Assembly: GCA_024762845.1 (NCBI GenBank)
Contig: JANTGQ010000001.1
Coordinates: 1 to 25,543, forward strand
Direction of reading: 5' to 3'
DNA: 25,543 bases
Source of the DNA: Nitratifractor sp.
Lineage (GTDB): Bacteria; Campylobacterota; Campylobacteria; Campylobacterales; Sulfurovaceae
Shown: in pieces, positions 1,259 through 23,284 of the stretch
How positions within the stretch are numbered: the first letter of the stretch is position 1
Layout of the letters: each line of letters starts with the position of its first letter
Notes under the pieces: generated by a model
Seen by the model: only the letters and a program-made list of their open reading frames with translations
What the model was told of the DNA's origin: nothing
Databases searched by the model: none
Program-made: the position numbers and the translations under genes

Positions 1259-1999
1259 TTACCCTCTAACTATCTCTCCAGTGAAGCTTATAATTCCACG
1301 ATATAAGTTACCAATATGTTTCATACCGTTTGATTTTAGTATCTGCTGTACTTGGTAGCTTCTGCTTCCTGTGTGGCAGTAGAGGATAATATTTTCATCT
1401 TTTCTCTCTACAATTTTATTGACCCAGTCGTAAAACTGTGTTGTTGGCAGGAGCTCATCTGTTCCTTTAATATGCCCCATTTTATACTCCATCAACTCTC
1501 TTACATCAATAAGTGAAAATTTGACCATACCCAGCTCTCTTGCCTCCAGAAGTGCTTCTAGTTCGTCGCCGTCAAGCTGCTCTTTATTTACAAGCATCTC
1601 TGCCTCTTGGGTCGTTAAACCTCGAGAGTGTGTATGAGCTGCCTCTTCCATGCTGTTCTCTTTACTCTTTTGCTCAGCGTACTCTGGTGTACAAAAGATT
1701 CCACAGTGGCACACGCCATCTTCTGGTATCTCTTTTTCCAATGCTGGTTTACATGGACAGATTCGATTATCTGCCGCTTTTCTCTCTTCTTCTGTTTCGC
1801 CTTGGACAATAAAACATGGGCAGTAGCGTTTGTTATAGATAAGCTTGTTTCTTGCAAGCCCCATAGCTACACCTTCGTTAACCTCTTCTTCTGGGTTTTG
1901 AACAAAACCAAACTGCTTATTTACCTTCTCTACGAACTTCCAAGTTTTCTCTAGCTCTACTTGGAAAGTATCTGAATTTACATCTATATTTTGTTGCAT
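1259..1999 (-). CDS. Ferredoxin:thioredoxin reductase catalytic (beta) domain fused to a C-terminal rhodanese domain
   Basis: The FTR signature CPC...CPC...CHC is present (YCPCF, ICPCK, VCHCGIF). The C-terminal part has LIDVRE..HIKG and the rhodanese active-site loop CHTGSRS. Confidence 0.9.
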   Translation of the reverse strand: MQQNIDVNSDTFQVELEKTWKFVEKVNKQFGFVQNPEEEVNEGVAMGLARNKLIYNKRYCPCFIVQGETEEERKAADNRICPCKPALEKEIPEDGVCHCGIFCTPEYAEQKSKENSMEEAAHTHSRGLTTQEAEMLVNKEQLDGDELEALLEARELGMVKFSLIDVRELMEYKMGHIKGTDELLPTTQFYDWVNKIVERKDENIILYCHTGSRSYQVQQILKSNGMKHIGNLYRGIISFTGEIVRG

Positions 2000-2048: not shown

Positions 2049-3872
2049 TTACTTAATACTTTTTAAAAGTTCAACAAATCTATCTGGTTTTACAAAGCCT
2101 TGCTGAAAGAGATTTTCAAGAGCCTCGCCTTTACTATTAAAAAAGAGAATATTTGGGGCTCCAAATATATTAAAATGTTTCATTATAGCTTGGTCATCTT
2201 TTGTGTACTTTGTTATATCTAATTGAATAAAGCGAAATCGCTTCATAGCCTCTTTTACTTTAGGATTAGGAAAGGTAATCTCTGCAAGCTCTGTACACGC
2301 AGCACAGTTATCTTTACCAATATCAACAACAACAGGTCTCTTCTCTTTTTTTATCTCGTCTAGCAAAGTTTGAAGTCTGTATTGTTGCGTACTATGAGAG
2401 CTACTTTCAGCTTTTACAGAAATAGTTGTACCTTTAAATTTTTCTAGCGGATTAAAAATAGAAGTCGCACCACTTACAGCACCTACAAATAGAATAACTC
2501 CATAGAGAAGCACTAAGAAGTTTAAGATTTTAAAGACTCCAGTAATACCACTGCTGTTATTAGAGTCAAATACTTTAAACATTATAGCTGTTCCTATAAG
2601 CAGTATTGAGAATAGGTAAATATAGAGACTCGGAGAGATAATACCACGTAGAACATAAAGTGCCATAAGCAGCATTAAAACACCAAATACTCTTGAGACA
2701 TTCTCCATCCATCCACCAGGTTTTGGAACTAAATTTTTTGCACCAATACCAACAAGAAGCAGTGGTACACCTGCGCCAATACCCATTACAAAGAGTGCCA
2801 AACCGCCAAGCAATGCATCGCCTGTTGCTGATATAAAGACTATCGCACCACTAATTACCGGTGCTGTACAAGCGCCAACAATTAATGCAGAGATTGCACC
2901 CATAATTGCTGTACCAATTAAACCTTTTCCCTGAGCACTGTTGCTAACATTGTTTAATTTAGACTGTAGCTTCGATGGCAGTGCAATCTCAAAATAGCCA
3001 AAGAGAGAGAGTGCAAGTGCTATAAATATTGCAGCAACGGGTAAGATAACCCACGGATTATTTAAATTAGCCTGCAGATCAAAGTTAAGTAAACCTGCAA
3101 CAATGCCTATAACAGCATAACTAGCTGCCATGGCTACCACATAGACCAGTGATATAGTAAATGAAGTACCTCTCTTAATTTCGCCGCCGCTTCTATTTGC
3201 CTGTTGCAAAAGTATAGAGCTTAAAATTGGAATCATAGGTAGAATACATGGAGTAAGTGCCAATAATAGACCAACTATAAAGAAGAGCAGAAGTACAAAA
3301 ATCAGCCCTTCACTCTTAAGGGCTTGGGCAATATCTTTACTATTTCCTTGCTTAGCAAGAGTAGCTATCTTTTCAAAGAACCCAACTTTTTGGACTTTGC
3401 TAGTGCTAGTAGTACTCTCTACCGTATTTATTGAAGTGCTGGTTTTTGGAGCTTCGAGAGTAAAGGTGTAGCTCTGAGGTGCATAACAGATACCAGCGTC
3501 GGAACAACCTGAAAGATCAACCTGTAAATTATATTTACCACTGACCCCTAGTGTAGCGTTAGGTATGCTTATGGTTAAGTTACTGTCGTATGCCTCTTCG
3601 CCGGTAATAATTTTTGCTTTTGGCAATGTAGGGTTTAGTACTTTTTGACTTGGTTTTACAATAGAGAATTTGAGTTTGTTTTTATAGATATGTATCTTAT
3701 CCCCAAGTATAATATCTATAGTTAACGCATCTTTACCCTGTTTTGCATTTACTTTAAAAGCTTCGCTTGGCTTTAAGAAAGTTTGCTGTTTAGGTATCTC
3801 GAAACCGCCAAATCCTTCGCTGTAGAGTTGCGTAAAAAAGAGTAGCAGTAGTGGTAGTAGTAGTTTTTTCAT
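2049..3872 (-). CDS. dsbD: Thiol:disulfide interchange protein DsbD
   Basis: Signal peptide, then the N-domain cysteine pair GCSDAGICY, the transmembrane cysteines TPCILPM and GACTAP, and a C-terminal thioredoxin fold with CAAC. Confidence 0.93.
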   Translation of the reverse strand: MKKLLLPLLLLFFTQLYSEGFGGFEIPKQQTFLKPSEAFKVNAKQGKDALTIDIILGDKIHIYKNKLKFSIVKPSQKVLNPTLPKAKIITGEEAYDSNLTISIPNATLGVSGKYNLQVDLSGCSDAGICYAPQSYTFTLEAPKTSTSINTVESTTSTSKVQKVGFFEKIATLAKQGNSKDIAQALKSEGLIFVLLLFFIVGLLLALTPCILPMIPILSSILLQQANRSGGEIKRGTSFTISLVYVVAMAASYAVIGIVAGLLNFDLQANLNNPWVILPVAAIFIALALSLFGYFEIALPSKLQSKLNNVSNSAQGKGLIGTAIMGAISALIVGACTAPVISGAIVFISATGDALLGGLALFVMGIGAGVPLLLVGIGAKNLVPKPGGWMENVSRVFGVLMLLMALYVLRGIISPSLYIYLFSILLIGTAIMFKVFDSNNSSGITGVFKILNFLVLLYGVILFVGAVSGATSIFNPLEKFKGTTISVKAESSSHSTQQYRLQTLLDEIKKEKRPVVVDIGKDNCAACTELAEITFPNPKVKEAMKRFRFIQLDITKYTKDDQAIMKHFNIFGAPNILFFNSKGEALENLFQQGFVKPDRFVELLKSIK

Positions 3873-3966
3873 ATATCCTTATCCTCGCTTTAAGTTTAAT
3901 TTAGTATAAAATTATGAACATCTTCGGTTACTAAAAGATGCCCTTTACTTTGTATTGATAATACTA

Positions 3967-4055
3967 TTTGCAAGTAGAGTATCTGTGTACTAGACTTCTT
4001 GCAAAACTGTATTTAAGAGTGTATCTGCAAAATATATAGTTTTGAAAGAAGTCTA
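3967..4055. repeat. Overlapping inverted repeats in the dsbD/yyaL divergent intergenic region
   Basis: TAGACTTCTTGCAAAA (3991-4006) is the reverse complement of TTTTGAAAGAAGTCTA (4040-4055) at 15/16 positions, and the pairing extends inward with G-T pairs. TTTGCAAG (3967-3974) also pairs with CTTGCAAA (3998-4005). Confidence 0.7.
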
Positions 4056-4108
4056 CTATTGGTAATTTAGAAACTATAACAAATTTTTATTAATAAAAGG
4101 TTACTCAA

Positions 4109-5857
4109 ATGACAAATAGATTAATTAATGAAGAGTCACATTATCTACAAAAGCACGCACAAGATCCTGTTGATTGGTATCCGTGGGGAGAAGAGGCACT
4201 ACAGAAAGCACAAAAAGAGAACAAAGCAATTTTTTTAAGTATTGGCTATAGTAGTTGCCACTGGTGCCATGTGATGCAAAGAGAGTCATTTGATAATGAG
4301 GAGATAGCTCAAAAACTTAATGAAAATTTTATCTCAATCAAAGTAGATAAAGAGGAGCGTCCCGATATCGACAGACACTTTCAAGAGATTTACGAAAAGA
4401 TGCAAAACAAGAGAGGTGGATGGCCACTTTCTATATTTATGACTCCCAAGAGGAGTCCTTTTCATGCTGCAAGCTATATACCACCAATTGCAAACTATGG
4501 AATGATGGGATTTGCTGACCTACTAGATGTAATAGCACGAAGCTATACTCAAGATAGTGAAACTATGCAGAAGAAGGGTGAAGAGGTTCTTGAAGCACTA
4601 AAGCCAAAGAGTAATATAGAAGCTACACGAATTACAGAGCAGCTCATAAATATATCGGTACAACAGATTAAAGAGGTTTTTGAAAAAGAGTATGGAGGAT
4701 TTGGCGATACTCCCAAGTTTTTACATACAGCCACACTTAATTTGGCTCTGAAACTCTATAAACTTACAAAAGATAAAGAGTTAAAAGATATTGTTACTTA
4801 TACGCTTGATAAAATGCTTTTAGGTGGTCTCTATGACCATGTAGATGGTGGATTTTGCCACTCCAGCAGAGATAAAATGTGGCTTGTTCCACACTTTGAG
4901 AAGATGACATATGACAATGCCCTTATGGCAAAACTACTACTCAAAACTTATCAAGAGAGCAATATAGAGCTCTATAAAGAGGCAGCGTTCGAGACGATAA
5001 ACTTTATGCTACAAAAGATGAGTAGTGATAATCTCTTTTTTAGTACCAGCAGTGCTGATACAAATGGTGAAGAGGGAGAGTATTTTATATATAGCTACAA
5101 TGAAGTAAAAGAGGCATTTGAAGCAGAGGACCTAGAGAGTAATCTGCTCTTTGAGCTCTCTATATCCAAAAATGGTAATTTCGACGGTAAATCAATAGTG
5201 CGACTACAGGATATCAGCTCTAAGCGGGAGCCAGAAATAGAAAAAGCACTCCGTATTATGGCGAAGTTAAGGGAGAAAAGAGAGTATCCATGTATAGATA
5301 AGAAAATAGTTACATCTTGGAATGCAATGATGATTGGAGCACTTTTTGAAGCATCTAAAAGTGAAAAGAGCTACTTAGAAGTTGCTCTAAAATCACTAGA
5401 AGCACTCGAGAAGAAAATGGTAGATGGTGTAGAGCTCTACCATACTGCACCTATTGAAAAAAGCCCCAAGGTAAAAGCTGTTCTCGAAGATTACGCATGG
5501 TTTATAGATACATATCTAAGAGCATATAATGTAACACAAGATGAACACTACCTGATAAAAGCTACCAATTTGACAAATGAGGCGATAAGAAAATACTATA
5601 GAGATGGAAAATGGCTTATAAGTGATGGCGAGTTTAAAAGATTTGAGGTCGATGTCGACAATAGTTACTCTTCAGCTCTCGCTTTAATGGTACAAAATCT
5701 ATTAACCCTGCGTTCGTTCAGCAAATCTATATATGAGAAGTTTGCATTCCAAACACTGCAAGTGCACTCTTATGATTTAATGAGACAAGCTATATCAAGA
5801 CCAACTCTCGCAGATGCAGCAATTAGGTACTTAAAACCTGAGTTTGACAAGATATGA
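4109..5857 (+). CDS. Thioredoxin-domain protein of the YyaL/SPATA20 (DUF255) family; C-terminus possibly shortened
   Basis: N-terminal [28 protein letters not shown], CxxC in [12 protein letters not shown], and the family motifs [19 protein letters not shown] and TSWNAMM. RBS AAGG at 4097-4100. Confidence 0.9.
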
Positions 5858-6227: not shown

Positions 6228-6611
6228 TTAGTCTGTCTCTTGTGTCCAATACTCAATGTGTTTGATAAGATTCTCTTCTTTAATTGGCTTAATTAATATA
6301 TCATCTGCTCCGAAGTTAAGAACTTCATTCTTTTCTGTGTCATCAGTTGTTAAAACAATTACGGGTGTATTGCTATTGCTTTTATGAGAACGAAATGCCC
6401 GAAGAAAACCTTTTCCATCTAAAATAGGCATAAGTATATCAAGAAGGACAAGATTTATCTCTGAATTTGTATCTACAATCTCCAGTGCTTCGGCACCATT
6501 GCTTGCCTCTGTAATTTCATTAATCATATCTTTATGTCGCGAGAGTAGGGCTCGTATGAGCTTTCGGTTAATGATATCATCATCTACTAAAAGTACATTT
6601 AACTGTTTCAC
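6228..6611 (-). CDS. Single-domain response regulator (CheY-like receiver)
   Basis: VLLVDDD, phosphoacceptor LLDILMP, conserved Thr in LTT, and KP. The GTG start overlaps the kinase stop (TAGTG at 6609-6613). Confidence 0.92.
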   Translation of the reverse strand: MKQLNVLLVDDDIINRKLIRALLSRHKDMINEITEASNGAEALEIVDTNSEINLVLLDILMPILDGKGFLRAFRSHKSNSNTPVIVLTTDDTEKNEVLNFGADDILIKPIKEENLIKHIEYWTQETD

Positions 6612-9600
6612 TATTTCGCCCTATATTTGCTAATAAGTGCCTGGATCTCATCTTTATTTGTAAGTTGATTAATAGATTCAACTCTAATTGAGTTATAATC
6701 TTGCAGGTTGTTTGCCTCTTCGGTAAGAACTACTGTCATATCTTGTTTGCTGATAATTTGCAAAAGAGTAGATGTTAAAAGCTCTTCATCAGTAAAGAGT
6801 ATGTCATACTCTTCGGTAGCTATTTTATGTGCAAGCTTTTCGGGTTTTTCCAATACATCAGATACCTCGCCAATAGATGTAACAAGAGTAGAGAGTATCT
6901 TATTGCTTAAAGGGAACTTTTTGGCAATGAGTATCTTTTTAGGTTTACTCTCTATCTTCTTCTCCTCTTGAACTTCTTTAATATTAGTTTTAGATCGATT
7001 TTTTCTATTCTCGTTTTGTTTCTCTAAGATATCCAATCTAATAGAGGATTTATGGCTTAGGAATTTGTGTAAAATATAGAGAAGTTCTGCCATCTCTATC
7101 GGTTTAGATATATATTCATCTAATCCCTCTTTTAAGAGTCTCTCTCTATCTCCCTTGAGTGCGTTTGCGGTTAGTGCTATAATTGGCACCTTGTTTAAAG
7201 CATTTTCATCTTCAAACTTTTTAATTATTTTTGTAGCCTCTATTCCATCCATTACCGGCATCTGGATATCCATAAATATAAGGTCATAGTCATTTACTAC
7301 TTTTCTTTTATCTACAGCCTCTTTTCCATGGTCAGCAACATCAACCTTGAGCCCAAAACTCTTGAGTATATTTACAATCAGTTTTTGATTGATAATATTA
7401 TCTTCTACAACAAGTACTTTTCCGTAGTACTTTGTATGTACTTTAGGGGTCTCTTGCTCTTTTGTTGTGTCTAACTTGCTTAAAAACTTCAGTGTATTTA
7501 AGAATCTGTTAAAGCCGATTGGTTTAAAGAGTATACGCTCATTCGGCAGTGCATACTCTTTAAGAATTTCATTATTTGTAAGGGTACTGATAGCTACAAA
7601 TTTCTCTTTATCCAGAGAGTGTAGCTCATCTTTTAACTCTTTGCTTGCTCTATTTATATCTACAAGAACATTTGCATTTGGATACTCATTTTGTAGAGTT
7701 TTTAGCTCATCTTTTGATTCAAAAAGTGAATATTTGGCGCCATAATATTTAAGATACTCCTCGATATAGTGTACCAGATGGTTCTCTTTGTCATTTTGGT
7801 AAAGAAGTAGTTCTAACTCTTTAAACAGACCGCTATAGCGCTCAATTCCACTCTCTATCTCCTCTATCGGCAGTGTAAAGTAGAATGTTGAACCAACACC
7901 CTCTTTACTGTCTACTTTTAGCTCCCCGCCCATAAGGTCTACATACTCTTTTGTGATGGTTAAGCCTAGCCCTGTTCCACCATATTTTCTGTTAACAGAT
8001 GAGTCACCCTGCATAAATGGTTGGAATATTCTCTCAAGCTGCTGCTTACTCATACCAATACCGGTATCACTTACGATAAACTCTACCCATACTCTATTAT
8101 CATCTTGAACAGTAAAACTTTTTTTGATCTCGACATCTATTTCACCATGTGCTTTGGTAAACTTAATTGCATTATTAAGTAGATTTGTCAATATCTCTTT
8201 TAGTTTGGTTGGATCACCCTTTAGTTTAGGGGAGATATTAGGATCAAGATAGTAGTTTAACTCTATGTTCTTCTCAGACGCAATAACAGCAAAAGTATCA
8301 ATAGTACTGTCGAACTCTTTTGCACTGTCAAAAATAACATGCTCTAACTCTACTTTATTACTCTCAAGCTTAGAGAGGTCAAGAATATTGTTAATAATAT
8401 TTAAAAGATTATCAGAACTCTTCTCAATAATTGTAACATACTCTCTCTGCTCATCATTAAGTTTTGTATTTTTCAAGAGTTCAGCAAAACCGATAATACC
8501 GTTCATTGGAGTTCTAATCTCATGCGACATATTTGCCAAGAAGTAGGATTTTGCTTTATTTGCTTCTACTGCGTCAACTTTATCCTCTTTAGCAGACTCT
8601 ATCATTGTCTCTAAAAACTTATACCCTTTACGCATACCACCAGATGTTTCGAAGTCGATGGTATTAATCTCTTGAAGTTCCTCTTTAACGCTAGGGTCAG
8701 TCTCGCCCAACTCTTTAACAGCTCTTTTGAGAGATAACTCAAGTTCACTAGAGTTTTTCTCAAGCTCTTTAGAGATTTTATGTCCAAAAAGAATGAGAAG
8801 AAGCGAAACTAATAGTAGTAGACCAAACAGCCCAACAAGAAGTAGGTGTTTTTGCATATTCTCTTTAAGTTTCTCTTTTGCCTGATTATATATAACAGCC
8901 GTAGATTTACTATATAATCCCGTATATTTACTTAAAACCGTATAGAGCCTAATAGAATCCGTTGTATAGTTACCTGTTGTGGCATTTTTTAAAATATCAT
9001 CATAAACATTAACAAACTTCTCCTCTACGAGGTTGCTATAAGAGTTATTTAAAAAGGCAGATATCTTTTGAGACAACTCTTTATCTTCTATTAGATTTGG
9101 ATCAAAACGCATAGCTTTGGCATGGTAACCCATCCATTGTTTCAACGTATCTTTTGTTATCTTATTTCGCTTTTCTATATTAAAAATAAGAAAATCGCGT
9201 AACAGGGCAGAGTACTCCTGACTTAAATAGAGATTTGAGAGTGCACTGTTTATCTTATTTAAGTCACTATCAAGCAAGAACCTCTCAACTTGCAGTAGAT
9301 TTTTCAGAACTGGGGTTGTAAGAGTAGTGGTGTAGCTGTCTAATATTTTTTTATAGTCAGCAGCGGGAAGAGAGACAAGTGAAGTCCGAATCTCTTTAAG
9401 AGAGTTTAGCTTCTTATTGAGTTTTAGATACGATTGTGAGTCTACAGAGATTGGCTCATGAAAAAGATAATCTTTTGCCAAAAGTGTAGAGCTGTTGCTT
9501 ATTAAATTATTTTTATACTCTTTAATTGCAGCATCAGTCTTTTTATACTGCTTCTTTAAGAGCTCTTTATAAGATGCCTTATTCGATGCAAGATGCAGGG

Positions 9601-9790
9601 CAGTTATGCCACGCTCCCTGCCAAGCTCTATCAATACTTTATCTAAATGAGTATTGTTGGTAGTAACAGCTTTATAGGCTCTTACCTTCTCATAATTTAT
9701 ATAGGTATTATAGAAAAGATAAGCAGCTGCTGCAACCAATATAAGTGCTGGAAGCAGTGTTATAAGTTTTAATTTACTCTTAATTTTCAT
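6611..9790 (-). CDS. Membrane-bound hybrid sensor histidine kinase: NIT-like extracytoplasmic sensor, HisKA, HATPase, one intact and two degenerate receiver domains
   Basis: Two transmembrane segments flank a helical sensor containing ELGRERG. H-box [12 protein letters not shown]; N/G boxes [18 protein letters not shown] and GGTGLGL; receiver LIFMDIQMP ... TANA ... SKP. Confidence 0.92.
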
Positions 9791-12085
9791 CTATTTATTA
9801 CTCTCGAAACTTTCTACTTCGCTCTCTAATCCCTTTAGTTTAGAGACAAACTCTTTTAAAAGCTCTTCTGACTTATCCATAGATTGAAGCTTCTGTAGAC
9901 TAAAAAGTGTCTCAGACACAGAGTCAAGCCGTAAATTACTTGCAGCACCTTTTAACATATGAGCTGTTGTTTGCATAGTTTTTATATCTTTCTCTTTATA
10001 AGCTTTTACCATTTGTGAAAGATGCTCTTTAGCCTGCGCAATAAAGTCATCTACAAACTCTAAAATCAGAGAAACTGGCAGATTTAAATCGTTAGATGCA
10101 TGATGAGGGTCAAAAGAGACATCTTTACTCTCTATCTTCTCTAAAAGAGATTGTGCAGATGTAATATCTATCACCTCTTGTGCAGGTAAAATCTCTTCTG
10201 CTACTTCTGCTTCTTTTAGCGCTTCTGTAGATACTAGCTTCTCTTCTGTTTCACTACTCTTTTCATCAATAACCTTCTTCTCACTAATGCTTTCAATAGC
10301 ACTCTTGTCGACTAACTTCTCTCTTAAGAGTGACTCAAAGAGAGTTACATCTCTTAATATACTACTATGGTCACTATTAGCATCTCTTAGCTCTTTTAAC
10401 TTTTTAGATACTGGGGTAAGAGATAATAACTCCGAAGCATCCTCTAGCATTGATATTGTAGAGTCTGATCGATTTTCCAAATCTTCTCTATAATTGTCTA
10501 GTTCATCTAAGTAGTTTCCTAACAGCATTTTATAACTATCTAAGTCTATACTGAGGTTCTTTGCATTTTGTTCTAAATTAACTCCATCTACTTGCATTTG
10601 AATTAGTTTATAGTAAAGCTTGCTACTATCTGCAGAAGATATTGTTTTACTCTCTTTTTTCTCTGCAACTACTTCTGATTGCAGCTGCGTAGGCTCTACA
10701 ACTTTTTTAATCTCTTGGGGCGCTACTGCCTCAGTTGTAACAGTTTGGCTTTTAGTTTCCTTAATCTTCTCTTGGTGCATTCGCTTTAGCTCTGCCAACT
10801 CTTGCTCTTCAAGTGTTGGCTCTGCTTCTTTTGTATCGATAATTATAGGTTCTTCTTCTACAGGTTCTTCTACTGTGCTCACTTTCTGAGTAGTAATACT
10901 CTCTTCTTTTGTCTCTATAACTGGTAGAACAACCTCATCTTCTTGCTCTTGTTTCTCAATAACTTCGCTATAGATTGGCTCCTGGCTTGTAACTTTTTCA
11001 GACTCTTCATAATCAGACTCTATAAACTTTTTCTCTTGGGAGTGCTCTTTTGTCTCTAGCAAGTCACTCGCAGTTGTTAGAACTTTCTCTTTATGGCTCT
11101 CTTCTAACTCTATATTCTCTTCGAGTTTTGAACCCCAAGGGAAAAGCTTCTCTTTAAGTCTGTTTAAACCTTTATTTTTGCTGCCACTCTCCTCTTCGCC
11201 ACCTGTTGCTACCTCTGCAATCTTCTCGAGTGGTTTTAGCTCTTCTTCGCCCTTCTCTTCTATAACAAGCTGTTGCTCATCTAATGGTTTGATATCAAAG
11301 TTTTCGCTCTCTTCTTTCTCTTCGACTGGGGTGAGCTCTTGTTCTACCTTTTCTACACTCTCTTGAGTCTTCTCTGGGGTAACTAACTCTATTGTATCAT
11401 TGTTACTTTCGTTCTCTTTTGCTTCGCTACTGTACTCTGTTAGTTTTATAGTTTCAGGAGTGGTAGTATCCTCACTCTTCTCTTCACTCTGTTCACTTTT
11501 ATGGTTTCCAAATAGTTTTACTGTTGCGTAACTCTCTGGTTCAACAGTTGGAGATTCACTTATACTCTCTTTAATAGTAAGATTTTCTTTATCTTCTACT
11601 ATTTGAGTCTCGGGCTCCAATGAGATAGTAGGGGCGATACTCTCTTCGATTACTTTGCTATTGCTCTCTTCGACCAAATCACTCTTTTCGATATCATCTT
11701 TTACTTTAGGAGTAACTTCACTCTTTTGGATAGTCGAGATTGTAGGTATAGAGAACTCATGGTCATCTTTTTTTATTACACCCTCACGCAGCTGCTTTAG
11801 ATAGTTAATACTCTCATCCTCTTCTACGATACTCTTTGACTCTTCAATAATATCACTCAGTTTATAGAGAGTTAATGTACCAAACGCCGAAAATAGTTTT
11901 GAACTCTCAAATCTGAGGTCCTCAGAAAAATTACTTGCTTTGAAAAGAGATGTTTCACTCTCAAGTCTTACGGTGCCATTTTTAAGAGAAGATGCTATTG
12001 CGCAAAGATCTCTTGAACCACTCTTTTCTAAAAACTCTTTGCTCGCTGCAACTATATAATTCTCGCTATTTGTAATAAAATACAT
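9791..12085 (-). CDS. Large acidic protein with a C-terminal Hpt domain, preceded by a His-less Hpt-like repeat
   Basis: Hpt motif TAHMLKGAASNLRL (His codon at 9959-9961), with about 400 aa of E/K/S/T-rich low-complexity sequence upstream. The stop codon abuts the kinase ATG. RBS AAGGA. Confidence 0.85.
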   Translation of the reverse strand: MYFITNSENYIVAASKEFLEKSGSRDLCAIASSLKNGTVRLESETSLFKASNFSEDLRFESSKLFSAFGTLTLYKLSDIIEESKSIVEEDESINYLKQLREGVIKKDDHEFSIPTISTIQKSEVTPKVKDDIEKSDLVEESNSKVIEESIAPTISLEPETQIVEDKENLTIKESISESPTVEPESYATVKLFGNHKSEQSEEKSEDTTTPETIKLTEYSSEAKENESNNDTIELVTPEKTQESVEKVEQELTPVEEKEESENFDIKPLDEQQLVIEEKGEEELKPLEKIAEVATGGEEESGSKNKGLNRLKEKLFPWGSKLEENIELEESHKEKVLTTASDLLETKEHSQEKKFIESDYEESEKVTSQEPIYSEVIEKQEQEDEVVLPVIETKEESITTQKVSTVEEPVEEEPIIIDTKEAEPTLEEQELAELKRMHQEKIKETKSQTVTTEAVAPQEIKKVVEPTQLQSEVVAEKKESKTISSADSSKLYYKLIQMQVDGVNLEQNAKNLSIDLDSYKMLLGNYLDELDNYREDLENRSDSTISMLEDASELLSLTPVSKKLKELRDANSDHSSILRDVTLFESLLREKLVDKSAIESISEKKVIDEKSSETEEKLVSTEALKEAEVAEEILPAQEVIDITSAQSLLEKIESKDVSFDPHHASNDLNLPVSLILEFVDDFIAQAKEHLSQMVKAYKEKDIKTMQTTAHMLKGAASNLRLDSVSETLFSLQKLQSMDKSEELLKEFVSKLKGLESEVESFESNK

Positions 12086-12180: not shown

Positions 12181-13998
12181 CTACTTTTCTATAATATTCA
12201 CACTTTTTAGCAGATTTGCTATTCTTTTATTGGTGATTTTTGCAATTTCACTATGCTCTGCACTCTCAATTGCTTCGAAAGTACCGAAGTAATTGAGTAA
12301 TTTTTTTACAATTTGTGGACCAACACCTTTATGATGATAGATCTCTAAACCAAGATCTTCTTTACGCTTTTTACTCTTGTGGTAACTTATAGCAAAACGG
12401 TGCGCTTCATCTCGGAGTCTCTGCAGAAACATTAATCGTTTGTCACTACTTTTTAATCGGACTATTTCTCCATTTTGTGTATAAATAATATCGTTTGCGG
12501 CACCTTTGGCTCTATGGGCTTTTGCATCTACTTTCTCTTTCGCAATGGCTAGAATATCTAAAGAGATATGCTCTTTATCTAAAATAGAGTGTGCTAGCTT
12601 TAGCAGAGTCGCCCCTCCATCAAGAAGCCATAAGTCAGGTGGGGACTCTTTAGAAAAACTCTCTACCCTGCGTTCTAGCATCTCTTTCATCTGAGCATAT
12701 TCATCTTTTGCCTGCAACTCATATCTGCGGTAACTCTTTTTATCCCAGCTGTTTTCATCCCAAACCACCATTGCTCCAACTGTTGCCTGTCCCATCATGT
12801 GGGAGTTGTCGAATACTTCTACTCTATAGGGTGCTAGTTGGAGTGTAAAGAGCTCTTTAATATCGTTTGCAATTGAGTAGCTGCTATCTTCTCTATTCTC
12901 TTTTAAGAGCTCTTTTGCATTTTTAATAGCTAAATCTATTAACTTCGCTTTATTGCCCGCTTTTGGAGCCTCTATAAATACTTTAGAGCCGATAGCCGTA
13001 CTTATAAGCTCTTGTGCGGCTTCAAGATCATCAAACTCTTGCGGAACCAAAACACGTTGAACCCCCATACTTATTGCTCTTTGGTAGTGGTCTACTACTA
13101 TCTGTTTATAGGCTTCACTACTATCAAACATCTGCGTATTTCTAAAGTAGTTATGTGTTGAAGAGACTATTTTCCCCTCTCTCATAAAAATTTTTACAAC
13201 AACACCTCTTTGCTCACCATTGACGACCACAAAAATATCATAGTTTGCTCGCGATGCAATATCTATTGTAGATTTCATCTGCAGTGCATTAATAACTTCT
13301 ACTCTATCTCTTAGTTTCGCGGCCTCTTCAAAACGCTCATTCGCTGCTAATGTAAACATTCTCTCGCTTATCTTATCGATTAGAATTTTTCTATTATTAA
13401 GCGCATACTTTGCCTCTTTTACAATTTTGGCATAACTGTTCTTGCTTATTTTACCCTCGCAGGGTGCTAGGCATTTGCCTATTTCGTAAAAGAGGCACGC
13501 TTTATTACCTTTAATACAACTCTTCTTTTGTACTAAGGGAAAGAAGTCATATAACGAATCAAGCAGCACCTTCGAGCCGCTTGGAAATGGTCCATAGTAT
13601 TTAAGTTTTGGCGATTTAATAACTTTTCTACTTATCTCAAAACGTGGAAACTCTTCGCTCTCATCTATTGTTATATAGGGATAGGTCTTATCGTCTCGAA
13701 GGAGAATATTATATTTGGGTTTGAGCTGTTTGATAAGTGAGTTTTCAAGAATGAGTGCATCCTCTTCGCTTGAGACAACAATATAGTCGAGATAGCTTGC
13801 CTCTTGGAGCATTTTACCAATTCGGGTAGTGTATGAGTATTTTGGAGTAATATCTGGCGTAAGGCGCCAATAGCTCTTTACTCTATTATTAAGATTTTTT
13901 GCTTTTCCTACATAAAGCAGCCGCTGCTGCGAGTCGAAATATTGGTATACACCTGGCTCTTTTGGAAGGTTTTTAATACTCTCATTAATTGTCTTCAC
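12181..13998 (-). CDS. uvrC: Excinuclease ABC subunit C
   Basis: GIY-YIG domain (PGVYQYF..LLYVGKAKNL), cysteine cluster CIK..ACLFYEIGKCLAPC, RNase H-like FDNSH and LDGG, RDEAHRFA, and a C-terminal HhH motif. Confidence 0.97.
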   Translation of the reverse strand: MKTINESIKNLPKEPGVYQYFDSQQRLLYVGKAKNLNNRVKSYWRLTPDITPKYSYTTRIGKMLQEASYLDYIVVSSEEDALILENSLIKQLKPKYNILLRDDKTYPYITIDESEEFPRFEISRKVIKSPKLKYYGPFPSGSKVLLDSLYDFFPLVQKKSCIKGNKACLFYEIGKCLAPCEGKISKNSYAKIVKEAKYALNNRKILIDKISERMFTLAANERFEEAAKLRDRVEVINALQMKSTIDIASRANYDIFVVVNGEQRGVVVKIFMREGKIVSSTHNYFRNTQMFDSSEAYKQIVVDHYQRAISMGVQRVLVPQEFDDLEAAQELISTAIGSKVFIEAPKAGNKAKLIDLAIKNAKELLKENREDSSYSIANDIKELFTLQLAPYRVEVFDNSHMMGQATVGAMVVWDENSWDKKSYRRYELQAKDEYAQMKEMLERRVESFSKESPPDLWLLDGGATLLKLAHSILDKEHISLDILAIAKEKVDAKAHRAKGAANDIIYTQNGEIVRLKSSDKRLMFLQRLRDEAHRFAISYHKSKKRKEDLGLEIYHHKGVGPQIVKKLLNYFGTFEAIESAEHSEIAKITNKRIANLLKSVNIIEK

Positions 13999-14443
13999 GG
14001 TTTCTAAGAATATCCTCTCTTATTTTTTTAAAAATCTCTGTTAATTCATCTTTGCTTGATTGTATCTCAAAATCGCCATATGCCAACTCCCTATATTTGG
14101 GGTCACTATTAGAGATATAACTTTCTGGTTTTGTATGGTATTTTGATACAAAAAACTCCACCTTTTCAATATGCGAAAAAGTCTCTTTGCACGATTGCTC
14201 AATAAAACTTAACTCTTTTAATAGGCTTTTTACTAAATCTTTATTATAATTTAGCTCCATTTTGTATCCGGGATGCGACAATCCTCCAAAAAGTGTATTG
14301 TTTCGGATATAAAAAAAAGCTATCGCTTTTTGAAACCTCGCAGGCAGAAGTGCCTGTAACTTATTTAAACAGGAGTATTTATGAATCGACTTAAAGTTGG
14401 GTCTGCTTTTCACACTATTAAGAATTTGGTTCGCTTTTTTCAT
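13985..14443 (-). CDS. Conserved Campylobacterota protein upstream of uvrC; possibly DUF721/DciA-like
   Basis: 152 aa ORF overlapping the uvrC start by 14 bp. The segment IRNNTLFGGLSHPGYKMELNY resembles the KH-like core of DUF721/DciA proteins. The family assignment is by eye only. Confidence 0.55.
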   Translation of the reverse strand: MKKANQILNSVKSRPNFKSIHKYSCLNKLQALLPARFQKAIAFFYIRNNTLFGGLSHPGYKMELNYNKDLVKSLLKELSFIEQSCKETFSHIEKVEFFVSKYHTKPESYISNSDPKYRELAYGDFEIQSSKDELTEIFKKIREDILRNREDN

Positions 14444-14554
14444 ATCGCGATTATAGCATCTTTTCTACTAATTGCAACGACAAGCGGATGTGGTTATAAA
14501 ACATCTCCTGTATGGGTAGATAAGAGTGCGAAGGCTCAGAGTGCCAAAAAATAA
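14426..14554 (+). CDS. Small putative lipoprotein (42 aa from TTG 14426; 57 aa from the in-frame ATG at 14381)
   Basis: Below the ORF-track cutoff. Translation: [42 protein letters not shown], with a hydrophobic h-region and a lipobox-like TSGC. The stop overlaps the nadB start. The ATG at 14381 has AGGAG at 14371-14375. Confidence 0.6.
   Translation: MVRFFHIAIIASFLLIATTSGCGYKTSPVWVDKSAKAQSAKK
14450..14458 (-). promoter_or_regulatory. Extended -10 promoter TGcTATAAT predicting a leaderless mRNA for the ORF-uvrC operon
   Basis: The minus strand reads TGCTATAAT-cgcgat-ATG. Only 6 nt separate the -10 box from the start codon, and there is no Shine-Dalgarno sequence. Confidence 0.75.
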
Positions 14555-16004
14555 GAGATACGATACTATTATTATTGGTGCCGGAATTGCCGGTCTATAT
14601 TTGGCAAGTAAATTGCCCAAAGATAAAAAGGTACTTGTACTCTGTAAAGATATCCCCTGGGAGTGTAATACATTTTATGCACAGGGCGGTATGGTTACAG
14701 CCCTGGATGAAAACGATATAGAACCCCACGTTTTAGATACTCTGGAGGCTGGCTCGTACCATAATGTAAAAGCAGCAGTCGAGGCGCTATCAAGAGACTC
14801 AATAGCAATTAGAGAAGATTTTGTCAAACATGGGATGGAGTTTGACAGCGCAGAAGATGGCAGACTACTCTATACAAAAGAGGCAGCACACTCTACAAGT
14901 CGAATTTTGCATGCCGGTGGTGATGCAACTGGTAGATATATGCATATGTTTTTAATGCAGCAAAATCTCCATATGCTACAGAAAAACTCCCTTGTTTACG
15001 ACCTTTTAATAGAGGGTGGAAGATGTTACGGTGTACGCCTAATGAAAGACTATAAACCCGAAACCCTCTATGCAAACTCTGTAGTAATTGCTAGTGGTGG
15101 AATAGGCTCTCTTTACCAATATAACACCAACTCTCGAACTGTCAGTGCAGATATACACGGTATATGTGTAGAGAAAGGGATAGAGTTAAAAGATATGGAG
15201 TTTATGCAGTTTCACCCAACTGTCTTTGTAAAAACCCCATTTGCAAGAAAACTCTTGCTTACAGAAGCCTTGCGAGGTGAGGGTGCATGGATTGTAGATG
15301 AAGATGGAAAAAGATTCCTATTCGACTATGACCCCCGAGGCGAATTGGCAAGTCGAGATATAGTCTCTCGCTCTATTTTTCTCTACAAGAGAGAGAGTGG
15401 TAAAAAAGTCTATTTAGATTTTAGTATGTTTGACGAAGATTGGTTCATTAAACGTTTCCCTAATATTACTAAAACGTTTAAAGCTATCGGATATAATCTT
15501 CCACGAGACAGAGTAGAGATATCTCCGGCATTTCACTATGCAAATGGTGGTATTGCATGCGATTTAGAGGGTAGGGTGCCAGGTATTAAAGGGCTTTATG
15601 TAGCAGGAGAAGCTGCAAGAACAGGGGTGCATGGTGCAAACAGACTCGCATCTAACTCGCTTTTAGAAGGAGCAGTATTTGCAAAAAGGTGTGCAGATGC
15701 CATATTGCAAGATGACAACTGCTGGGAACACGAGCCAAATTTCGACAAAGACTACGATACTCTTCTACACGAAGAGAATGATAAAAGCTATAAACATAAA
15801 CTCAGAGAGATTATGTGGAAAGATGTTGGAATTGTACGGACCAAAAGCGGATTATTAGAGGCAAAAAATTTTATTTACGATACTAAAAGCAAAAAAATAG
15901 GCAGATTGCTTGAGCTTCGTTTAAACACTGCTGCAGCTATTGTTATGTCTGCACTTAGACGCGAAGAGTCTCTGGGCTCACACTATATAGAAGAAAAATA
16001 TTAA
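14541..16004 (+). CDS. nadB: L-aspartate oxidase (start GTG 14541 preferred; GTG 14526 possible)
   Basis: FAD-binding IIGAGIAG; NTFYAQGG lacks the covalent-FAD His of SdhA/FrdA; also [27 protein letters not shown] and [15 protein letters not shown]. Confidence 0.93.
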
Positions 16005-16012
16005 GGATAGAT

Positions 16013-17554
16013 ATGAAACAAGTACCAATAGTGGTTTTAGATTTTGGCTCACAATATACACAACTGATTGCAAGAAAGTTGAGAGAGAGCGGAGTTTATA
16101 CAGAGGTAGTGCCATATAGAGAGTCTATAGAAGATATTAAAAAAAGAGGACCAAAAGGTATTATACTTTCTGGTGGTCCAGCTTCTGTTTATGCAGAAGA
16201 TGCATACAAACCAGACGAAGAGATTTGGAACCTAGGTTTGCCAATTTTAGGTATATGTTATGGAATGCAGCTCATTACACAACACTTTGGTGGCGAAGTG
16301 GTAGCCGCAGACCACCAAGAGTATGGGAAAGCAAAGCTGCATATAGAAGATGATAATAGTCTAATATTTAAAAATATCAACCAAGATAGCATAGTATGGA
16401 TGAGTCATGGTGATAGAGCAGAGAAATTGCCCAAAGGGTTTAGTGTAGTTGGTACAAGCGAAAACTCTCCGTATGCGGCAATTGCCAGCGAAGAGAAAAA
16501 AATATATGCATTCCAGTTTCACCCGGAGGTACACCACTCGGTAGAGGGCACTAAGCTACTTAAAAACTTCGCCAAATATATTTGTGGCTGTGAAAGCACA
16601 TGGAATATGGGCAGTTTTGCAAAAGAGAAGATAGCACAAATTCAAAAACAGGTTGGCGATAAAAAAGTACTTTGTGGTGTTAGTGGTGGGGTAGATAGCT
16701 CCGTAGTTGCTGCAATGCTAAACGAAGCATTGCCAAAAGAGCAATTAGTTTGTGTATTTGTAGACCAGGGATTGCTAAGAAAAGATGAAGCAGAACAAGT
16801 GCAGGATATGTTTAAACTTTTAGATATTTCACTAATTACTTTAGATGCAAAAGAGCAATTTATAGGTGCTCTTAAAGGTATTACCGACCCAGAACAAAAG
16901 CGTAAAATTATTGGAGAGAAGTTTATAGAGGAGTTCGATAAAGAGGCAAGTAGACATACTGATGTAAGCTTTCTTGCACAAGGTACACTCTACACTGATG
17001 TTATCGAATCTGTAAGTGTTAAGGGTCCTAGTAAAACTATTAAATCGCACCATAATGTTGGTGGTTTACCAGACTGGATGACTTTTGAGCTAGTTGAACC
17101 ACTAAGAGAAATCTTTAAAGACGAGGTTAGAAAACTAGGGCTAGAGCTAGGTTTACCTAAACATATGATAGAGCGCCACCCGTTCCCTGGACCAGGACTT
17201 GCTATTCGCGTCATGGGTGAAGTAAATGAAGAAGCTCTAAGACTACTCCGAGAGAGTGATGCAATTATGCAAGAGGAGCTAAGAGCTTCAGGATACTACA
17301 ACAAAGTATGGCAAGCTTTTACCGTACTGCTTAATGTACAATCTGTAGGAGTAATGGGTGATAATAGAACATACGACAATACCGTATGCGTACGAATGGT
17401 AGAGAGCGTAGACGGCATGACCGCAACATTTGCCCACATACCACACGATATTTTAGAGTCTATCAGCCGTAGAATAATAAATGAAATCGATGGCATAAAC
17501 CGTGTTGTCTACGACATAAGCTCTAAACCACCTGCCACAATAGAGTGGGAGTAG
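16013..17554 (+). CDS. guaA: GMP synthase (glutamine-hydrolysing)
   Basis: [44 protein letters not shown] and C-terminal [18 protein letters not shown]. Confidence 0.98.
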
Positions 17555-17559
17555 AGCTA

Positions 17560-17928
17560 GTGGCTCACCACAATAAACCGAAGTTTAATTTATTTAAAAA
17601 CATAGGGTATGCACTAAGCGGGGCTAAAATTGTACTAAAAGGAGAGACATCTTTTAAAATACAGTTATTTGTAATTGCTGTAATTGGTACTGTTTTGCTC
17701 TTTTTAAATTTAACTACACTTACCAAGCTAGTACTATTCTTTTCGACATGGTTAATACTTATTGCCGAAGCATTTAACAGTGCTGTTGAGCGTGTGGTTG
17801 ACCTTGTAACAAAAGAGTATGCACCATTGGCAAAAGAGGCAAAAGATATTGGCTCTTTTGGTGTACTGCTTACGTTTCTTTTTATAGCTTCAGTTTGGGG
17901 AGTAACGCTTTATCTTGAATTTAGATAA
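17560..17928 (+). CDS. dgkA: Diacylglycerol kinase (prokaryotic DAGK family)
   Basis: YALSG..ETSFKIQL, EAFNSAVERVVD and AKEAKDIGS with three hydrophobic segments. The start is reassigned to GTG 17560, with GGGAG RBS at 17547-17551; the ORF-track start at 17545 lies inside guaA. Confidence 0.9.
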   Translation: MAHHNKPKFNLFKNIGYALSGAKIVLKGETSFKIQLFVIAVIGTVLLFLNLTTLTKLVLFFSTWLILIAEAFNSAVERVVDLVTKEYAPLAKEAKDIGSFGVLLTFLFIASVWGVTLYLEFR

Positions 17929-17940
17929 AAGTATCTACTT

Positions 17941-18423
17941 TTATATCTCTTTTTCCATGAATTCAGCTATACCTGTAGAAGGATTAAGCTCGTAATTTTT
18001 AAATCCAAATTTTATATAAGATGACTTTGCAGGTTTATTTTTGCTTAGCACTTCTAAAGTCAGTTTACAGCAGCCTTTGGCAATTGCTATCTCTTCTATC
18101 TTTTGTAACATTTCTTGACTTAGACCTTTTCCACGATACTCCTGCAGTACTGCTAAATCATGAATATTTAGTAATGGCTTAGATTTAAAAGTAGAGAATG
18201 CTTCAAATGCGTTGATTAAGCCAGCTGGTTTACTATTTACATAGGCTAAAATAGTAATTGCATGGGGTATCTGTTTTAGAGAAGATACTAGATTCTCTTT
18301 AGCATACTGTGATAACTCTTCTCCTCCACCCATTGGGTCTTTGGCATAGCTATTGAGAAGATAGAGTATATCTTTTGCATGCTCCACATTTGTGTAATCT
18401 GCTTGTAGTATTTCTATATTCAT
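17941..18423 (-). CDS. GNAT family N-acetyltransferase
   Basis: Acetyl-CoA-binding motif A IHDLAVLQEYRGKGLS, followed by CKLTLEV..N..A...Y.KFGF. Confidence 0.9.
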   Translation of the reverse strand: MNIEILQADYTNVEHAKDILYLLNSYAKDPMGGGEELSQYAKENLVSSLKQIPHAITILAYVNSKPAGLINAFEAFSTFKSKPLLNIHDLAVLQEYRGKGLSQEMLQKIEEIAIAKGCCKLTLEVLSKNKPAKSSYIKFGFKNYELNPSTGIAEFMEKEI

Positions 18424-18426
18424 ATA

Positions 18427-19203
18427 TTACTTTACCATCTTAAGCAGTGTTTCTATACTCTTCTCCTGCATATCCAAATCTAAATGTGGGGCATCTTTTA
18501 CCTCTACTATAGTTACATTCACTCCCTTTGACTTTGCTAATTGGTAAAACTCTTTTGTAACTTCCGGCTTTGAGATAGTGTCTTTTGTACCATATACAAG
18601 AGCAATTTTACTCTCTTTGGAAATCTTATCTACAAAGTCAACTGCAGAGATTAAACCTTTTGTTTTATCTATTTTATGAATATCGTATCTTCCGCCAGCT
18701 AAAATGGCATTTTGGATTAGCTTTGGTTTATACCCTAAAACTGTAGCCGTTGCCATTGCTCCTGCAGAGTGTGCAACTACAGTTAACTCTTTGGCTTTGA
18801 ATTTGGATTTTAAATCTTTTAAGAGTGTTGCTAGAAACTCTACATACTCTTTTGTTGCAGCCATATGTACAGCATTTTTATTGTGCGTTAAAGCCTGAAT
18901 ATGATTAGTTGAAGAGCCAGAGTATCCAGGTAAAGCGACTGCTACCGTTGTGATATCGCTCTCAAGGTTTAAATTCTCAGCAAATGTTTTATATCGCGAG
19001 AGGGTGTCGGCTCCCTCTTTCCAGGCGCCGTGCACTGTTACAATGAACTTATCTTTTACTTCACCTTCAAATGATGCAAAATGAATACACTCACCAGCAC
19101 TAAAAATATAGCTATCTTTTAGGTTGGAACACTGCTCTTTGCTGATGCTTTTTGCATTAATTATTGCCAAAAGTGCAAGCAGCATAAAAAATATCTTTTT
19201 CAT
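18427..19203 (-). CDS. Exported alpha/beta-fold hydrolase
   Basis: Signal peptide MKKIFFMLLALLAIINA, oxyanion VHGA, nucleophile elbow AHSAG, acid in GTKD and His in APHL. Confidence 0.8.
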   Translation of the reverse strand: MKKIFFMLLALLAIINAKSISKEQCSNLKDSYIFSAGECIHFASFEGEVKDKFIVTVHGAWKEGADTLSRYKTFAENLNLESDITTVAVALPGYSGSSTNHIQALTHNKNAVHMAATKEYVEFLATLLKDLKSKFKAKELTVVAHSAGAMATATVLGYKPKLIQNAILAGGRYDIHKIDKTKGLISAVDFVDKISKESKIALVYGTKDTISKPEVTKEFYQLAKSKGVNVTIVEVKDAPHLDLDMQEKSIETLLKMVK

Positions 19204-19233
19204 TTGTTACCTTTCCTATTGAATATAGACTTG

Positions 19234-19242
19234 ATTATATCA
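19234..19242 (-). promoter_or_regulatory. Extended -10 promoter (TGaTATAAT) for the hydrolase-GNAT pair
   Basis: The reverse complement of 19234-19242 is TGATATAAT, 30 nt upstream of the ATG. An AGGAAAGG RBS lies between them. Confidence 0.65.
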
Positions 19243-19284
19243 ATCTTTGCAAATAAAAGTCAAGTTTCTAGTAATTGGAGTATA

Positions 19285-19305
19285 CTTTAGTCAAATAGGC
19301 TAAAG
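19285..19305. promoter_or_regulatory. HAIR-like (HspR) operator between the divergent hydrolase and htpG promoters
   Basis: CTTTAGT-caaatag-GCTAAAG matches the HAIR consensus CTTGAGT-N7-ACTCAAG at 11/14 positions with exact N7 spacing and symmetric substitutions. An outer repeat TGGAGTA/TACTCCA (19276-19282/19312-19318) flanks it. Confidence 0.6.
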
Positions 19306-19374
19306 TTTCTTTACTCCACTATTGATATTTTTAAAAAAATATAGTAAAATTACGAAAAAATATAGGAGTAATAG

Positions 19375-21246: not shown

Positions 21247-21265
21247 TTAGAGGAAAAAGGTCTTC

Positions 21266-22838: not shown

Positions 22839-22884
22839 CTTTTTATAAAATAATTGACTTCCTATAGATTTTTTGAATTTTTTT

Positions 22885-22893
22885 TGCTATAAT
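22885..22893 (+). promoter_or_regulatory. Extended -10 promoter TGcTATAAT, candidate promoter for 6S RNA
   Basis: Perfect TGnTATAAT in an AT-rich tract about 50 nt upstream of the predicted 6S stem. Confidence 0.55.
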
Positions 22894-22945
22894 ATAAATA
22901 TAGTTTAAATAATTAAATTAATATTTATTTTTAAGCTATACATAA

Positions 22946-23140: not shown

Positions 23141-23249
23141 ACTCTTTTTTATTACATTACCAACTAAGCATCAACGCTATTAAAATAATCTTCATATAGT
23201 TGCAAAATTGTACCTCTATAACTGATTTAGGTTACTGAGAGTGTTATAT

Positions 23250-23258
23250 TGGTATACT
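23250..23258 (+). promoter_or_regulatory. Extended -10 promoter (TGgTATACT) for purD-RDD-lptD
   Basis: TGGTATACT lies 26 nt upstream of ATG 23285, with GGAG RBS at 23273-23276. Confidence 0.65.
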
Positions 23259-23284
23259 TCTATAAAAATAGTGGAGTTGTATGT

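Follow-up and report, generated by a model that had tools for sequence, protein, structure and literature searches.

A ferredoxin:thioredoxin reductase-type module fused to a rhodanese in free-living Campylobacterota and its possible role in sulfane-sulfur reduction

The fusion gene and its two modules

The stretch of DNA analyzed here, referred to as the window, covers positions 1 to 25,543 of contig JANTGQ010000001.1 from a Nitratifractor sp. (Sulfurovaceae, Campylobacterota), and its source is a metagenome-assembled genome (MAG) that is 74% complete. Its minus strand carries a complete open reading frame (ORF) whose product joins a domain resembling the catalytic chain of ferredoxin:thioredoxin reductase (FTR) to a C-terminal rhodanese. 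The present analysis concerns this fusion gene, its relatives and the possibility that its product reduces sulfane sulfur with electrons from ferredoxin. The positions of the gene and its features are compiled in Table 1. The start codon, an ATG with GAAGG upstream, is supported by the homologues, which align from residues 1-5. In the Pfam scan the FTR-type domain FeThRed_B (PF02943) covered profile positions 1-105 of 106 and reached 127.3 bits (cut-off 22, E 3.1e-37), Rhodanese (PF00581) reached 51.8 bits (cut-off 22.2, E 1.2e-13), and nothing further was recognized in the 246 residues.

Table 1. Positions in the window of the fusion gene, its domains and motifs, and the dsbD gene next to it
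Feature	Position	Strand	Description and basis
FTR-rhodanese fusion gene (P0001), complete	1259..1999	minus	246 aa, stop codon counted in the coordinates; ORF translation, both Pfam domains, full-length homologues
FTR catalytic-chain-like domain FeThRed_B, residues 15-121	1637..1957	minus	Pfam, genome search, structural matches 7pwe, 1dj7 and 7c2b
First CPC, C60-P-C62	1814..1822	minus	sequence read; invariant in the 20-homologue alignment
Second CPC, C81-P-C83	1751..1759	minus	presumed cluster ligands; invariant in the 20-homologue alignment
CHC, C97-H98-C99	1703..1711	minus	invariant in the 20-homologue alignment; His as in classical FTR
Cys103, seventh cysteine	1691..1693	minus	4 residues past CHC (CHCGIFC); at least 90% conserved in the 20-homologue alignment
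Charged linker helix, residues 105-123	1631..1687	minus	DSSP on the AlphaFold2 model, H105-123, pLDDT 83-97
Linker motif H122-T-H-S-R-G-L-T129	1613..1636	minus	most fused homologues share the consensus HTHSRGLT
Single rhodanese domain, residues 146-237	1289..1564	minus	Pfam, structural matches to single-domain rhodaneses
Rhodanese active-site loop C208-H-T-G-S-R-S214	1358..1378	minus	sequence read and alignment
dsbD	2049..3872	minus	Pfam DsbD_N, DsbD_TM and thioredoxin-like domain; 49 bp upstream of the fusion gene

The sequence-only reading of this stretch had described an intact set of FTR motifs (CPC, CPC and CHC), a charged helical linker and a rhodanese with its cysteine in a CxxGxRS loop. 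All three elements were recovered, with FeThRed_B far above its cut-off, residues 105-123 predicted as one long helix joining the two domains, and Cys208 heading the rhodanese loop. The FTR motifs are separated by 18 residues from C62 to C81 and by 13 residues from C83 to C97, and the charged stretch between the domains reads PEYAEQKSKENSMEEAAHTH. By analogy with the Synechocystis FTR, C60 would correspond to a cluster ligand and C62 to the exposed redox-active cysteine, and the six motif cysteines fit the family pattern of four cluster ligands plus a redox-active pair. The FTR module is presumed, in line with its relatives, to bind a [4Fe-4S] cluster and to accept ferredoxin electrons.

Conservation was analyzed in an alignment of 20 diverse homologues with 42-89% identity to the query. 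The six FTR cysteines (C60, C62, C81, C83, C97 and C99), both prolines and His98 were invariant in 20/20 homologues, as were Cys208, Ser212 and Arg213 of the rhodanese, and Gly211 was at least 90% conserved. Because the FTR cysteines, His98 and these three rhodanese residues are invariant, both modules must be kept under selection as catalysts. The sequence-only reading would have been undermined by a poorly conserved rhodanese cysteine, and Cys208 was retained down to 42% identity. Two further features are specific to the clade. Cys103 also occurs in a stand-alone FTR paralogue described below and is absent from 4tpu and 7pwe within the aligned stretch, and the HTHSRGLT linker motif is missing in the divergent fused proteins P0123, P0126 and P0127 as well as in split gene pairs. 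One of these, P0123 from an uncultured Sulfurovum (308 aa), carries a C-terminal extension of about 65 residues and bears the erroneous source name 'Rubredoxin'.

The rhodanese loop is of the six-residue CX4R type of sulfurtransferases and is headed by Cys, not by the Asp, Ser or Gly of inactive rhodanese homology domains. Family score, fold and loop all point to a catalytic rhodanese of the single-domain type, for which persulfide transfer is predicted. Arsenate reductases with a rhodanese fold are known in general to exist and to need a thiol reductant, and vent fluids can be rich in arsenic, which would favor a Cdc25/Acr2-type arsenate reductase or phosphatase regenerated by the FTR module. 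This candidate was rejected as barely credible, because the loop is not the seven-residue CX5R loop of such enzymes, and no ars genes were found nearby.

The AlphaFold2 model built from 20 homologues reached a mean pLDDT of 93.6 and a pTM of 0.73. Foldseek matched its two domains separately, and no solved structure with both domains was among the matches. The FTR half matched 7pwe, 1dj7 and 7c2b, while the rhodanese half matched 3gk5, 3mzz, GlpE (1gmx), PspE (2jtq), CoADR-RHD (3icr and 3ict) and a PDO-rhodanese (5ve3). TM-scores of the rhodanese half, normalized by target, were 0.8-0.87 to single-domain rhodaneses (3gk5, 3mzz and 1gmx), with 0.84-0.87 for 3gk5, 3mzz and 9a5g_B. A complex prediction of the FTR part (residues 1-120) with a 4Fe-4S cluster and the rhodanese part (residues 124-246) gave a score of 0.10 (mark 0.32), a value that weighs on neither side of the question of binding. 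By sequence, the FTR domain was nearest to 7pwe (E 1e-7) and 4tpu (E 2e-6), followed by classical FTR chains (E 1e-4 to 1e-3). NCBIfam contained no dedicated model for the fusion. Among its named families MoeZ/MoeB came closest to the rhodanese domain, through its C-terminal rhodanese (E 8e-12 with the fused and 8e-14 with the split form). The score was 42.5-44.8 bits against a cut-off of 647, from a match confined to the C-terminal rhodanese section of the profile. With a score this far below the cut-off and no ThiF-type domain in the Pfam scan, the protein does not belong to the MoeZ/MoeB-rhodanese adenylyltransferase/sulfurtransferases.

Distribution, split forms and gene neighborhood

The sequence-only reading had proposed examining the domain architecture together with its taxonomy and neighbors, and the architecture proved to be a recurrent one, carried by Campylobacterota and set among housekeeping genes. 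A word-indexed search returned 1545 homologue matches, and the best 120 of these 1545 (67-89% identical) were all two-domain proteins. Carriers among the homologues included Sulfurovum sp. NBC37-1, Sulfurovum mangrovi, Nitratifractor and Hydrogenimonas, and their source names included 'ferredoxin-thioredoxin reductase catalytic subunit/rhodanese-related sulfurtransferase'. When 1.84 billion representatives (50% identity) were searched exhaustively, only about six full-length fused clusters came up, one of them from Sulfurospirillum, which makes the fusion family a compact one. The species-representative genomes with the fusion gene were all Campylobacterota (Sulfurovaceae, Arcobacteraceae, Halarcobacter and unnamed Campylobacterales).

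To follow the fusion across the phylum, an even sample of 400 Campylobacterota genomes, each at least 90% complete, was surveyed. Seven families had matches in 20/20, 7/7, 22/23, 34/34, 8/8, 18/19 and 4/4 of their genomes, tallies in which matches to FTR alone, to rhodanese alone or to split pairs are also counted. For the two largest families, which to judge from the number of their genomes and the small genome sizes are probably the host-associated Campylobacteraceae and Helicobacteraceae, no fusion was found and only weak or partial matches were seen, in 1/118 and 4/158 genomes. The FTR-rhodanese fusion is near-universal in free-living Campylobacterota and a common feature, not a one-off. 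DNA of the window was also present in hydrothermal-vent metagenomes of several studies, and no RNA dataset was among the matches, either for a 3-kb stretch or for the gene alone.

The two modules also occur as separate genes. The source genome contains a stand-alone FTR paralogue of 116 aa (G000 contig C90, L002:1495-1845, minus strand), which is about 61% identical to the fused domain, has the CPC/CPC/CHC set and the extra cysteine, and is flanked by a divergent gatC and, downstream, by dapE. At this gatC-dapE locus of several Sulfurovum genomes, an FTR gene (113-135 aa) is followed directly by a separate 114-aa rhodanese gene (L058:5829-6642 and L060:4050-4815), whose product is about 50% identical to the fused rhodanese domain and has the loop CRTGSRS or CRTGNRS. 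The order there is gatC-FTR-Rhd-(YqiA-like hydrolase)-dapE, and the next gene encodes a small periplasmic protein that resembles thioredoxin. Adjacent split pairs were likewise present in genomes G269, G289, G291 and G388, two of which (G289 and G291) also hold a fused copy, and read-through matches suggest further pairs in G297 and G364. Since the modules are fused in some genomes and encoded by adjacent separate genes in others, this Rosetta-stone arrangement supports a functional coupling in which FTR and rhodanese would work together.

Other arrangements of these modules were also observed. Genomes of family f4 have FTR modules in tandem, with a stand-alone FTR gene positioned directly upstream of the fusion gene (L077, G005:C1:547743-548784; also G007, G031, G045 and G106). 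A genome of the same genus as the source (G274; L067, G274:C12:69374-70579) has an additional single-domain rhodanese gene directly downstream of the fused gene, encoding 117 aa with 49% identity to the fused domain. The FTR-domain tree (118 columns) was mostly unresolved and gave no order of fusion versus fission. It placed the fused, split and stand-alone FTRs of Campylobacterota, including five unattributed stand-alone representatives, in one group with an SH-aLRT support of 97, and within it the gatC-dapE copies, split or alone, clustered at 92%, under the 95% mark.

A search for the variable subunit of classical FTR (FeThRed_A, PF02941) gave no match in the source genome, at its completeness of 74%, or in five complete relatives, and matched the Synechococcus control. 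As no variable subunit was found, the fusion does not represent an FTR heterodimer of the classical kind. The source genome also encodes a canonical trxA-trxB pair, and since a stand-alone FTR paralogue is present in addition, the fusion would not be needed as a general thioredoxin reductase. It could still be an ordinary ferredoxin:thioredoxin or ferredoxin:disulfide reductase whose rhodanese is an accessory, serving as a shield over the cluster in place of the variable subunit, as a docking surface or as a sensing switch gated by persulfidation. The histidine of the CHC motif is kept as in the classical thioredoxin-reducing FTRs, something other than the missing variable subunit must cover that face of the domain, and the source genome offers possible substrates in the form of two or more thioredoxins that pass the family cut-off and several thioredoxin-like proteins. 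On the other hand, FTR paralogues of 113-116 aa without a partner domain occur in the same genomes as the fusion and indicate that the FTR domain is stable without a rhodanese, the conservation of the whole CxxGxRS loop with its invariant Arg goes beyond the needs of a scaffold, and a thioredoxin gene is no recurrent neighbor. We regard an accessory rhodanese as rather unlikely, though it is the strongest competitor to a reductase that acts on the persulfide of its own rhodanese. The source genome contained seven further rhodanese-domain matches elsewhere.

In the window, the fusion gene follows dsbD on the same strand without a terminator-like site between them in the motif scan, and glutamine-dependent nadE lies 154 bp downstream. 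A gene for a 582-aa DUF255/YyaL-type protein with a thioredoxin domain is divergent from dsbD, and these two genes (2049-5857 in the window) make up a small thiol-redox cluster together with the fusion gene. The order dsbD-(0 or 1 gene)-FTR-rhodanese, together with the divergent DUF255 gene, recurs at loci L023, L067 and L069, all from close Sulfurovaceae relatives. This arrangement, along with a weak match of the split rhodanese to the NCBIfam family of rhodanese/DsbD fusion-like selenoproteins (TsoB), would be in keeping with a cytoplasmic electron donor to DsbD, in which electrons pass from ferredoxin through the FTR-rhodanese to DsbD and replace the route from NADPH through TrxB and thioredoxin. 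Against this, the adjacency was absent at about 40 other loci (including L068 and L071-L076), the usual donor trxA-trxB is present in the genome, and a rhodanese with a single cysteine is no dithiol donor. A general link to DsbD was rejected, the adjacency being limited to a Sulfurovaceae subclade, and a donor function appears very improbable.

Across about 45 loci compared, of which about 20 were scanned against Pfam, the neighbors of the fusion gene were housekeeping genes (IspH, ribosomal protein L9, HslV, the leucyl/phenylalanyl-tRNA-protein transferase Aat, ClpA, RecA, FabD, ArgH, aconitase and SecG). Such neighborhoods and the near-universal presence in free-living species would fit a core biosynthetic sulfur relay, in which the rhodanese persulfide is passed to a sulfur-carrier protein, a tRNA- or cofactor-thiolation enzyme or Fe-S assembly, and in which the FTR module either supplies electrons for reductive sulfur release or regenerates the rhodanese cysteine after an acyl-disulfide or disulfide intermediate. 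The closeness of the rhodanese to that of MoeZ/MoeB, below family cut-offs as it is, points the same way. However, this similarity exists at the domain level only, no gene for MoaD, ThiS, ThiF, tRNA thiolation or Fe-S assembly is a repeated neighbor of the fusion at these loci, and the phylum sample gave no fusion in its two largest families, which need these cofactors as well. A relay of this kind seems improbable to us in comparison with a ferredoxin-driven persulfide reductase.

The remainder of the window was occupied by genes of other functions. A signalling cluster on the minus strand (6228-12085) encodes a response regulator and a hybrid histidine kinase of 1059 aa that carries a NIT domain for nitrate/nitrite sensing, along with a protein of 764 aa in which a C-terminal Hpt was the sole recognized domain. 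Positions 12181-25542 hold housekeeping genes (uvrC, a nadB-like flavoprotein gene, guaA, dgkA, GNAT, an alpha/beta hydrolase, htpG, a CDF transporter, hemD, purD and an RDD-family protein).

Comparison with known reductases and rhodaneses

The closest functional precedents are Npsr and the CoADR-RHD enzymes, which like the fusion combine a disulfide-reductase module with a C-terminal rhodanese of about 100 residues. In Npsr a surface cysteine of the C-terminal rhodanese has been proposed as the first acceptor of sulfur in the reduction of persulfide or polysulfide to H2S (PMC7969121). The rhodanese of the fusion superposes on those of CoADR-RHD (3icr and 3ict) with a root-mean-square deviation (rmsd) of 1.7-2.0 A over about 97 residues. 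The reductase modules, in contrast, are not homologous: Npsr and CoADR-RHD employ a pyridine-nucleotide disulfide oxidoreductase with FAD and NAD(P)H and bound CoA as a shuttle, whereas the fusion has a 120-residue FTR-type module with a presumed [4Fe-4S] cluster and ferredoxin as its presumed partner, and no CoA site is known in it. As Pfam recognized no FAD/NAD(P)H domain and 3icr and 3ict matched the rhodanese only, the fusion is not a member of the Npsr/CoADR-RHD group and was classified as a functional analogue.

A second comparison concerns ferredoxin:disulfide reductase (FDR) fusions, the rubredoxin-FDR of Methanosarcina acetivorans (4tpu) and the glutaredoxin-FDR of Desulfotalea psychrophila (7pwe). 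These are FTR homologues that lack the variable subunit and are fused to a small redox domain, as is the case here, and the second spacer of 13 residues in the fusion is FDR-like (12 residues in FDR). The partners differ in that the fusion carries a C-terminal rhodanese with one cysteine in place of rubredoxin or glutaredoxin and has no CxxC or metal site, and the printed alignments show the triplet CHC in the fusion versus CYC in both 4tpu and 7pwe. Without a rubredoxin domain in the Pfam scan and with CHC instead of CYC, the fusion does not qualify as a Methanosarcina-type FDR.

With the classical FTRs of cyanobacteria and chloroplasts (1dj7, 2pu9 and 7c2b) the fusion shares the Pfam family, the CPC...CPC...CHC pattern and the histidine between the last two cysteines. 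It differs by the lack of a detected variable subunit, the extra Cys103, the fused rhodanese and a weaker similarity, and also in its spacers of 18 and 13 residues, those of classical FTR being 16 and 8. On the side of the rhodanese, the single-domain proteins GlpE and PspE of E. coli and human TSTD1 show the same fold and six-residue loop. GlpE releases its sulfane sulfur as sulfide when thioredoxin acts as the dithiol reductant. The reductant of GlpE-type rhodaneses is free thioredoxin that is ultimately reduced by NADPH, whereas in the fusion the reducing module would be tethered and driven by ferredoxin.

Proposed mechanism and its meaning

Classical FTR, according to what Dai et al. reportedly described in 2000 and 2007, takes two successive electrons from ferredoxin, the first of which opens the active-site disulfide while one of its cysteines binds the cluster. 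The exposed cysteine is then said to attack the substrate disulfide to form a heterodisulfide, from which the second electron frees the product. By analogy, the Cys-S-SH of a rhodanese is a chemically suitable candidate substrate for such an exposed thiolate. Because of this suitability, and because the logic is the same in Npsr, where FAD and NAD(P)H do the work of cluster and ferredoxin, a ferredoxin:sulfane-sulfur reductase was ranked first among the explanations considered. Npsr and CoADR-RHD, as well as the FDR domains fused to redox partners in 7pwe and 4tpu, may serve as precedents for this logic.

The proposed protein would be a cytoplasmic enzyme of two modules, an N-terminal [4Fe-4S] disulfide reductase of the FTR/FDR type that uses single ferredoxin electrons and a C-terminal catalytic rhodanese. 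Cys208 would accept sulfane sulfur, with thiosulfate, polysulfide and low-molecular-weight or protein persulfides as candidate donors, to become Cys208-SSH, and a first ferredoxin electron would open the C62-C99 disulfide beside the cluster. The freed C62 thiolate could then attack the inner sulfur of the persulfide, expel HS- and leave a C62-S-S-C208 heterodisulfide, the analogue of the FTR-thioredoxin intermediate, which the second electron would resolve. The net activity would be that of a ferredoxin:sulfane-sulfur reductase acting on persulfide, polysulfide or thiosulfate. While the domain identities, the conserved catalytic residues, the coupling of the modules and their distribution come from the analysis itself, we infer cluster binding, electron donor, substrate and intramolecular step, and give the reduction of sulfane sulfur or persulfide on the rhodanese cysteine by ferredoxin a chance slightly short of even. 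A somewhat more tentative proposal is that the fusion would establish a new enzyme activity, namely a ferredoxin:persulfide (sulfane-sulfur) reductase that depends on a [4Fe-4S] cluster and provides a core cytoplasmic sulfur step in free-living Campylobacterota.

Several observations weigh against such an enzyme. No conserved operon and no sulfur-metabolism partner emerged among the neighbors at the approximately 45 loci, and the conservation of the rhodanese cysteine may have causes besides the carriage of persulfide. In G121, a complete genome from the same genus, the fusion is missing and its two modules are encoded at loci that are not linked. Superposition of the model on a 41%-identical fused relative from the AlphaFold database gave a whole-chain TM-score of 0.44 and an rmsd of 11.6 A, and because of this poor agreement the orientation of the domains to each other is not reproducible between predictions. 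The distribution of the fusion also does not track that of SoxB and is far wider, SoxB being present in 0/7, 5/19 and 21/34 genomes of families in the phylum sample in which the fusion is near-universal. A link to the Sox system was rejected on account of this much patchier occurrence of SoxB across families. The suggestion of the sequence-only reading that the fusion would suit a sulfur-cycling organism was borne out only loosely, because the fusion reaches well beyond SoxB. Because of this reach, the scattered housekeeping context and the cytoplasmic location, a ferredoxin:sulfane-sulfur reductase would be expected to serve sulfane-sulfur homeostasis or the supply of sulfide in free-living, sulfide-exposed Campylobacterota, and not respiration.

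The architecture is already visible in public annotation and is therefore not new as a sequence, and it may have been listed before by Balsera et al. (Planta, 2013). In agreement with the sequence-only reading, which knew of no biochemical study of such a protein, the literature search found no paper on an FTR-rhodanese fusion within its reach, which did not extend to the papers on FTR evolution and FDR (Balsera 2013, Prakash 2018 in JBC and Wei 2015). Publications on the sulfur metabolism of Campylobacterota list 'rhodanese-like sulfurtransferases' with roles unassigned (PMC13609358, PMC10045233). Compared with the flavoenzyme-rhodanese persulfide reductases and the rubredoxin- or glutaredoxin-FDR proteins, what appears to be new is the joining of an Fe-S disulfide reductase to a persulfide carrier. 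Given a compact family of high conservation that has cultured members, among them Sulfurovum sp. NBC37-1 and a Sulfurospirillum, the hypothesis of a ferredoxin-driven reductase is directly testable.

The handling of reactive sulfane sulfur in the cytoplasm of Campylobacterota is poorly known, and Sulfurovum, Sulfurimonas and Arcobacteraceae dominate sulfidic and vent habitats. If the fusion does act as proposed, it would link the low-potential ferredoxin pool directly to sulfur trafficking and extend the FTR mechanism, the cleavage of a disulfide by an Fe-S cluster, to a new class of substrates. It would then be a counterpart, independent of oxygen and NAD(P)H, of Npsr, which like CoADR-RHD is an NADH-dependent persulfide reductase, and would represent a core and so far unrecognized cytoplasmic sulfur step in the dominant primary producers of vents and sulfidic waters.

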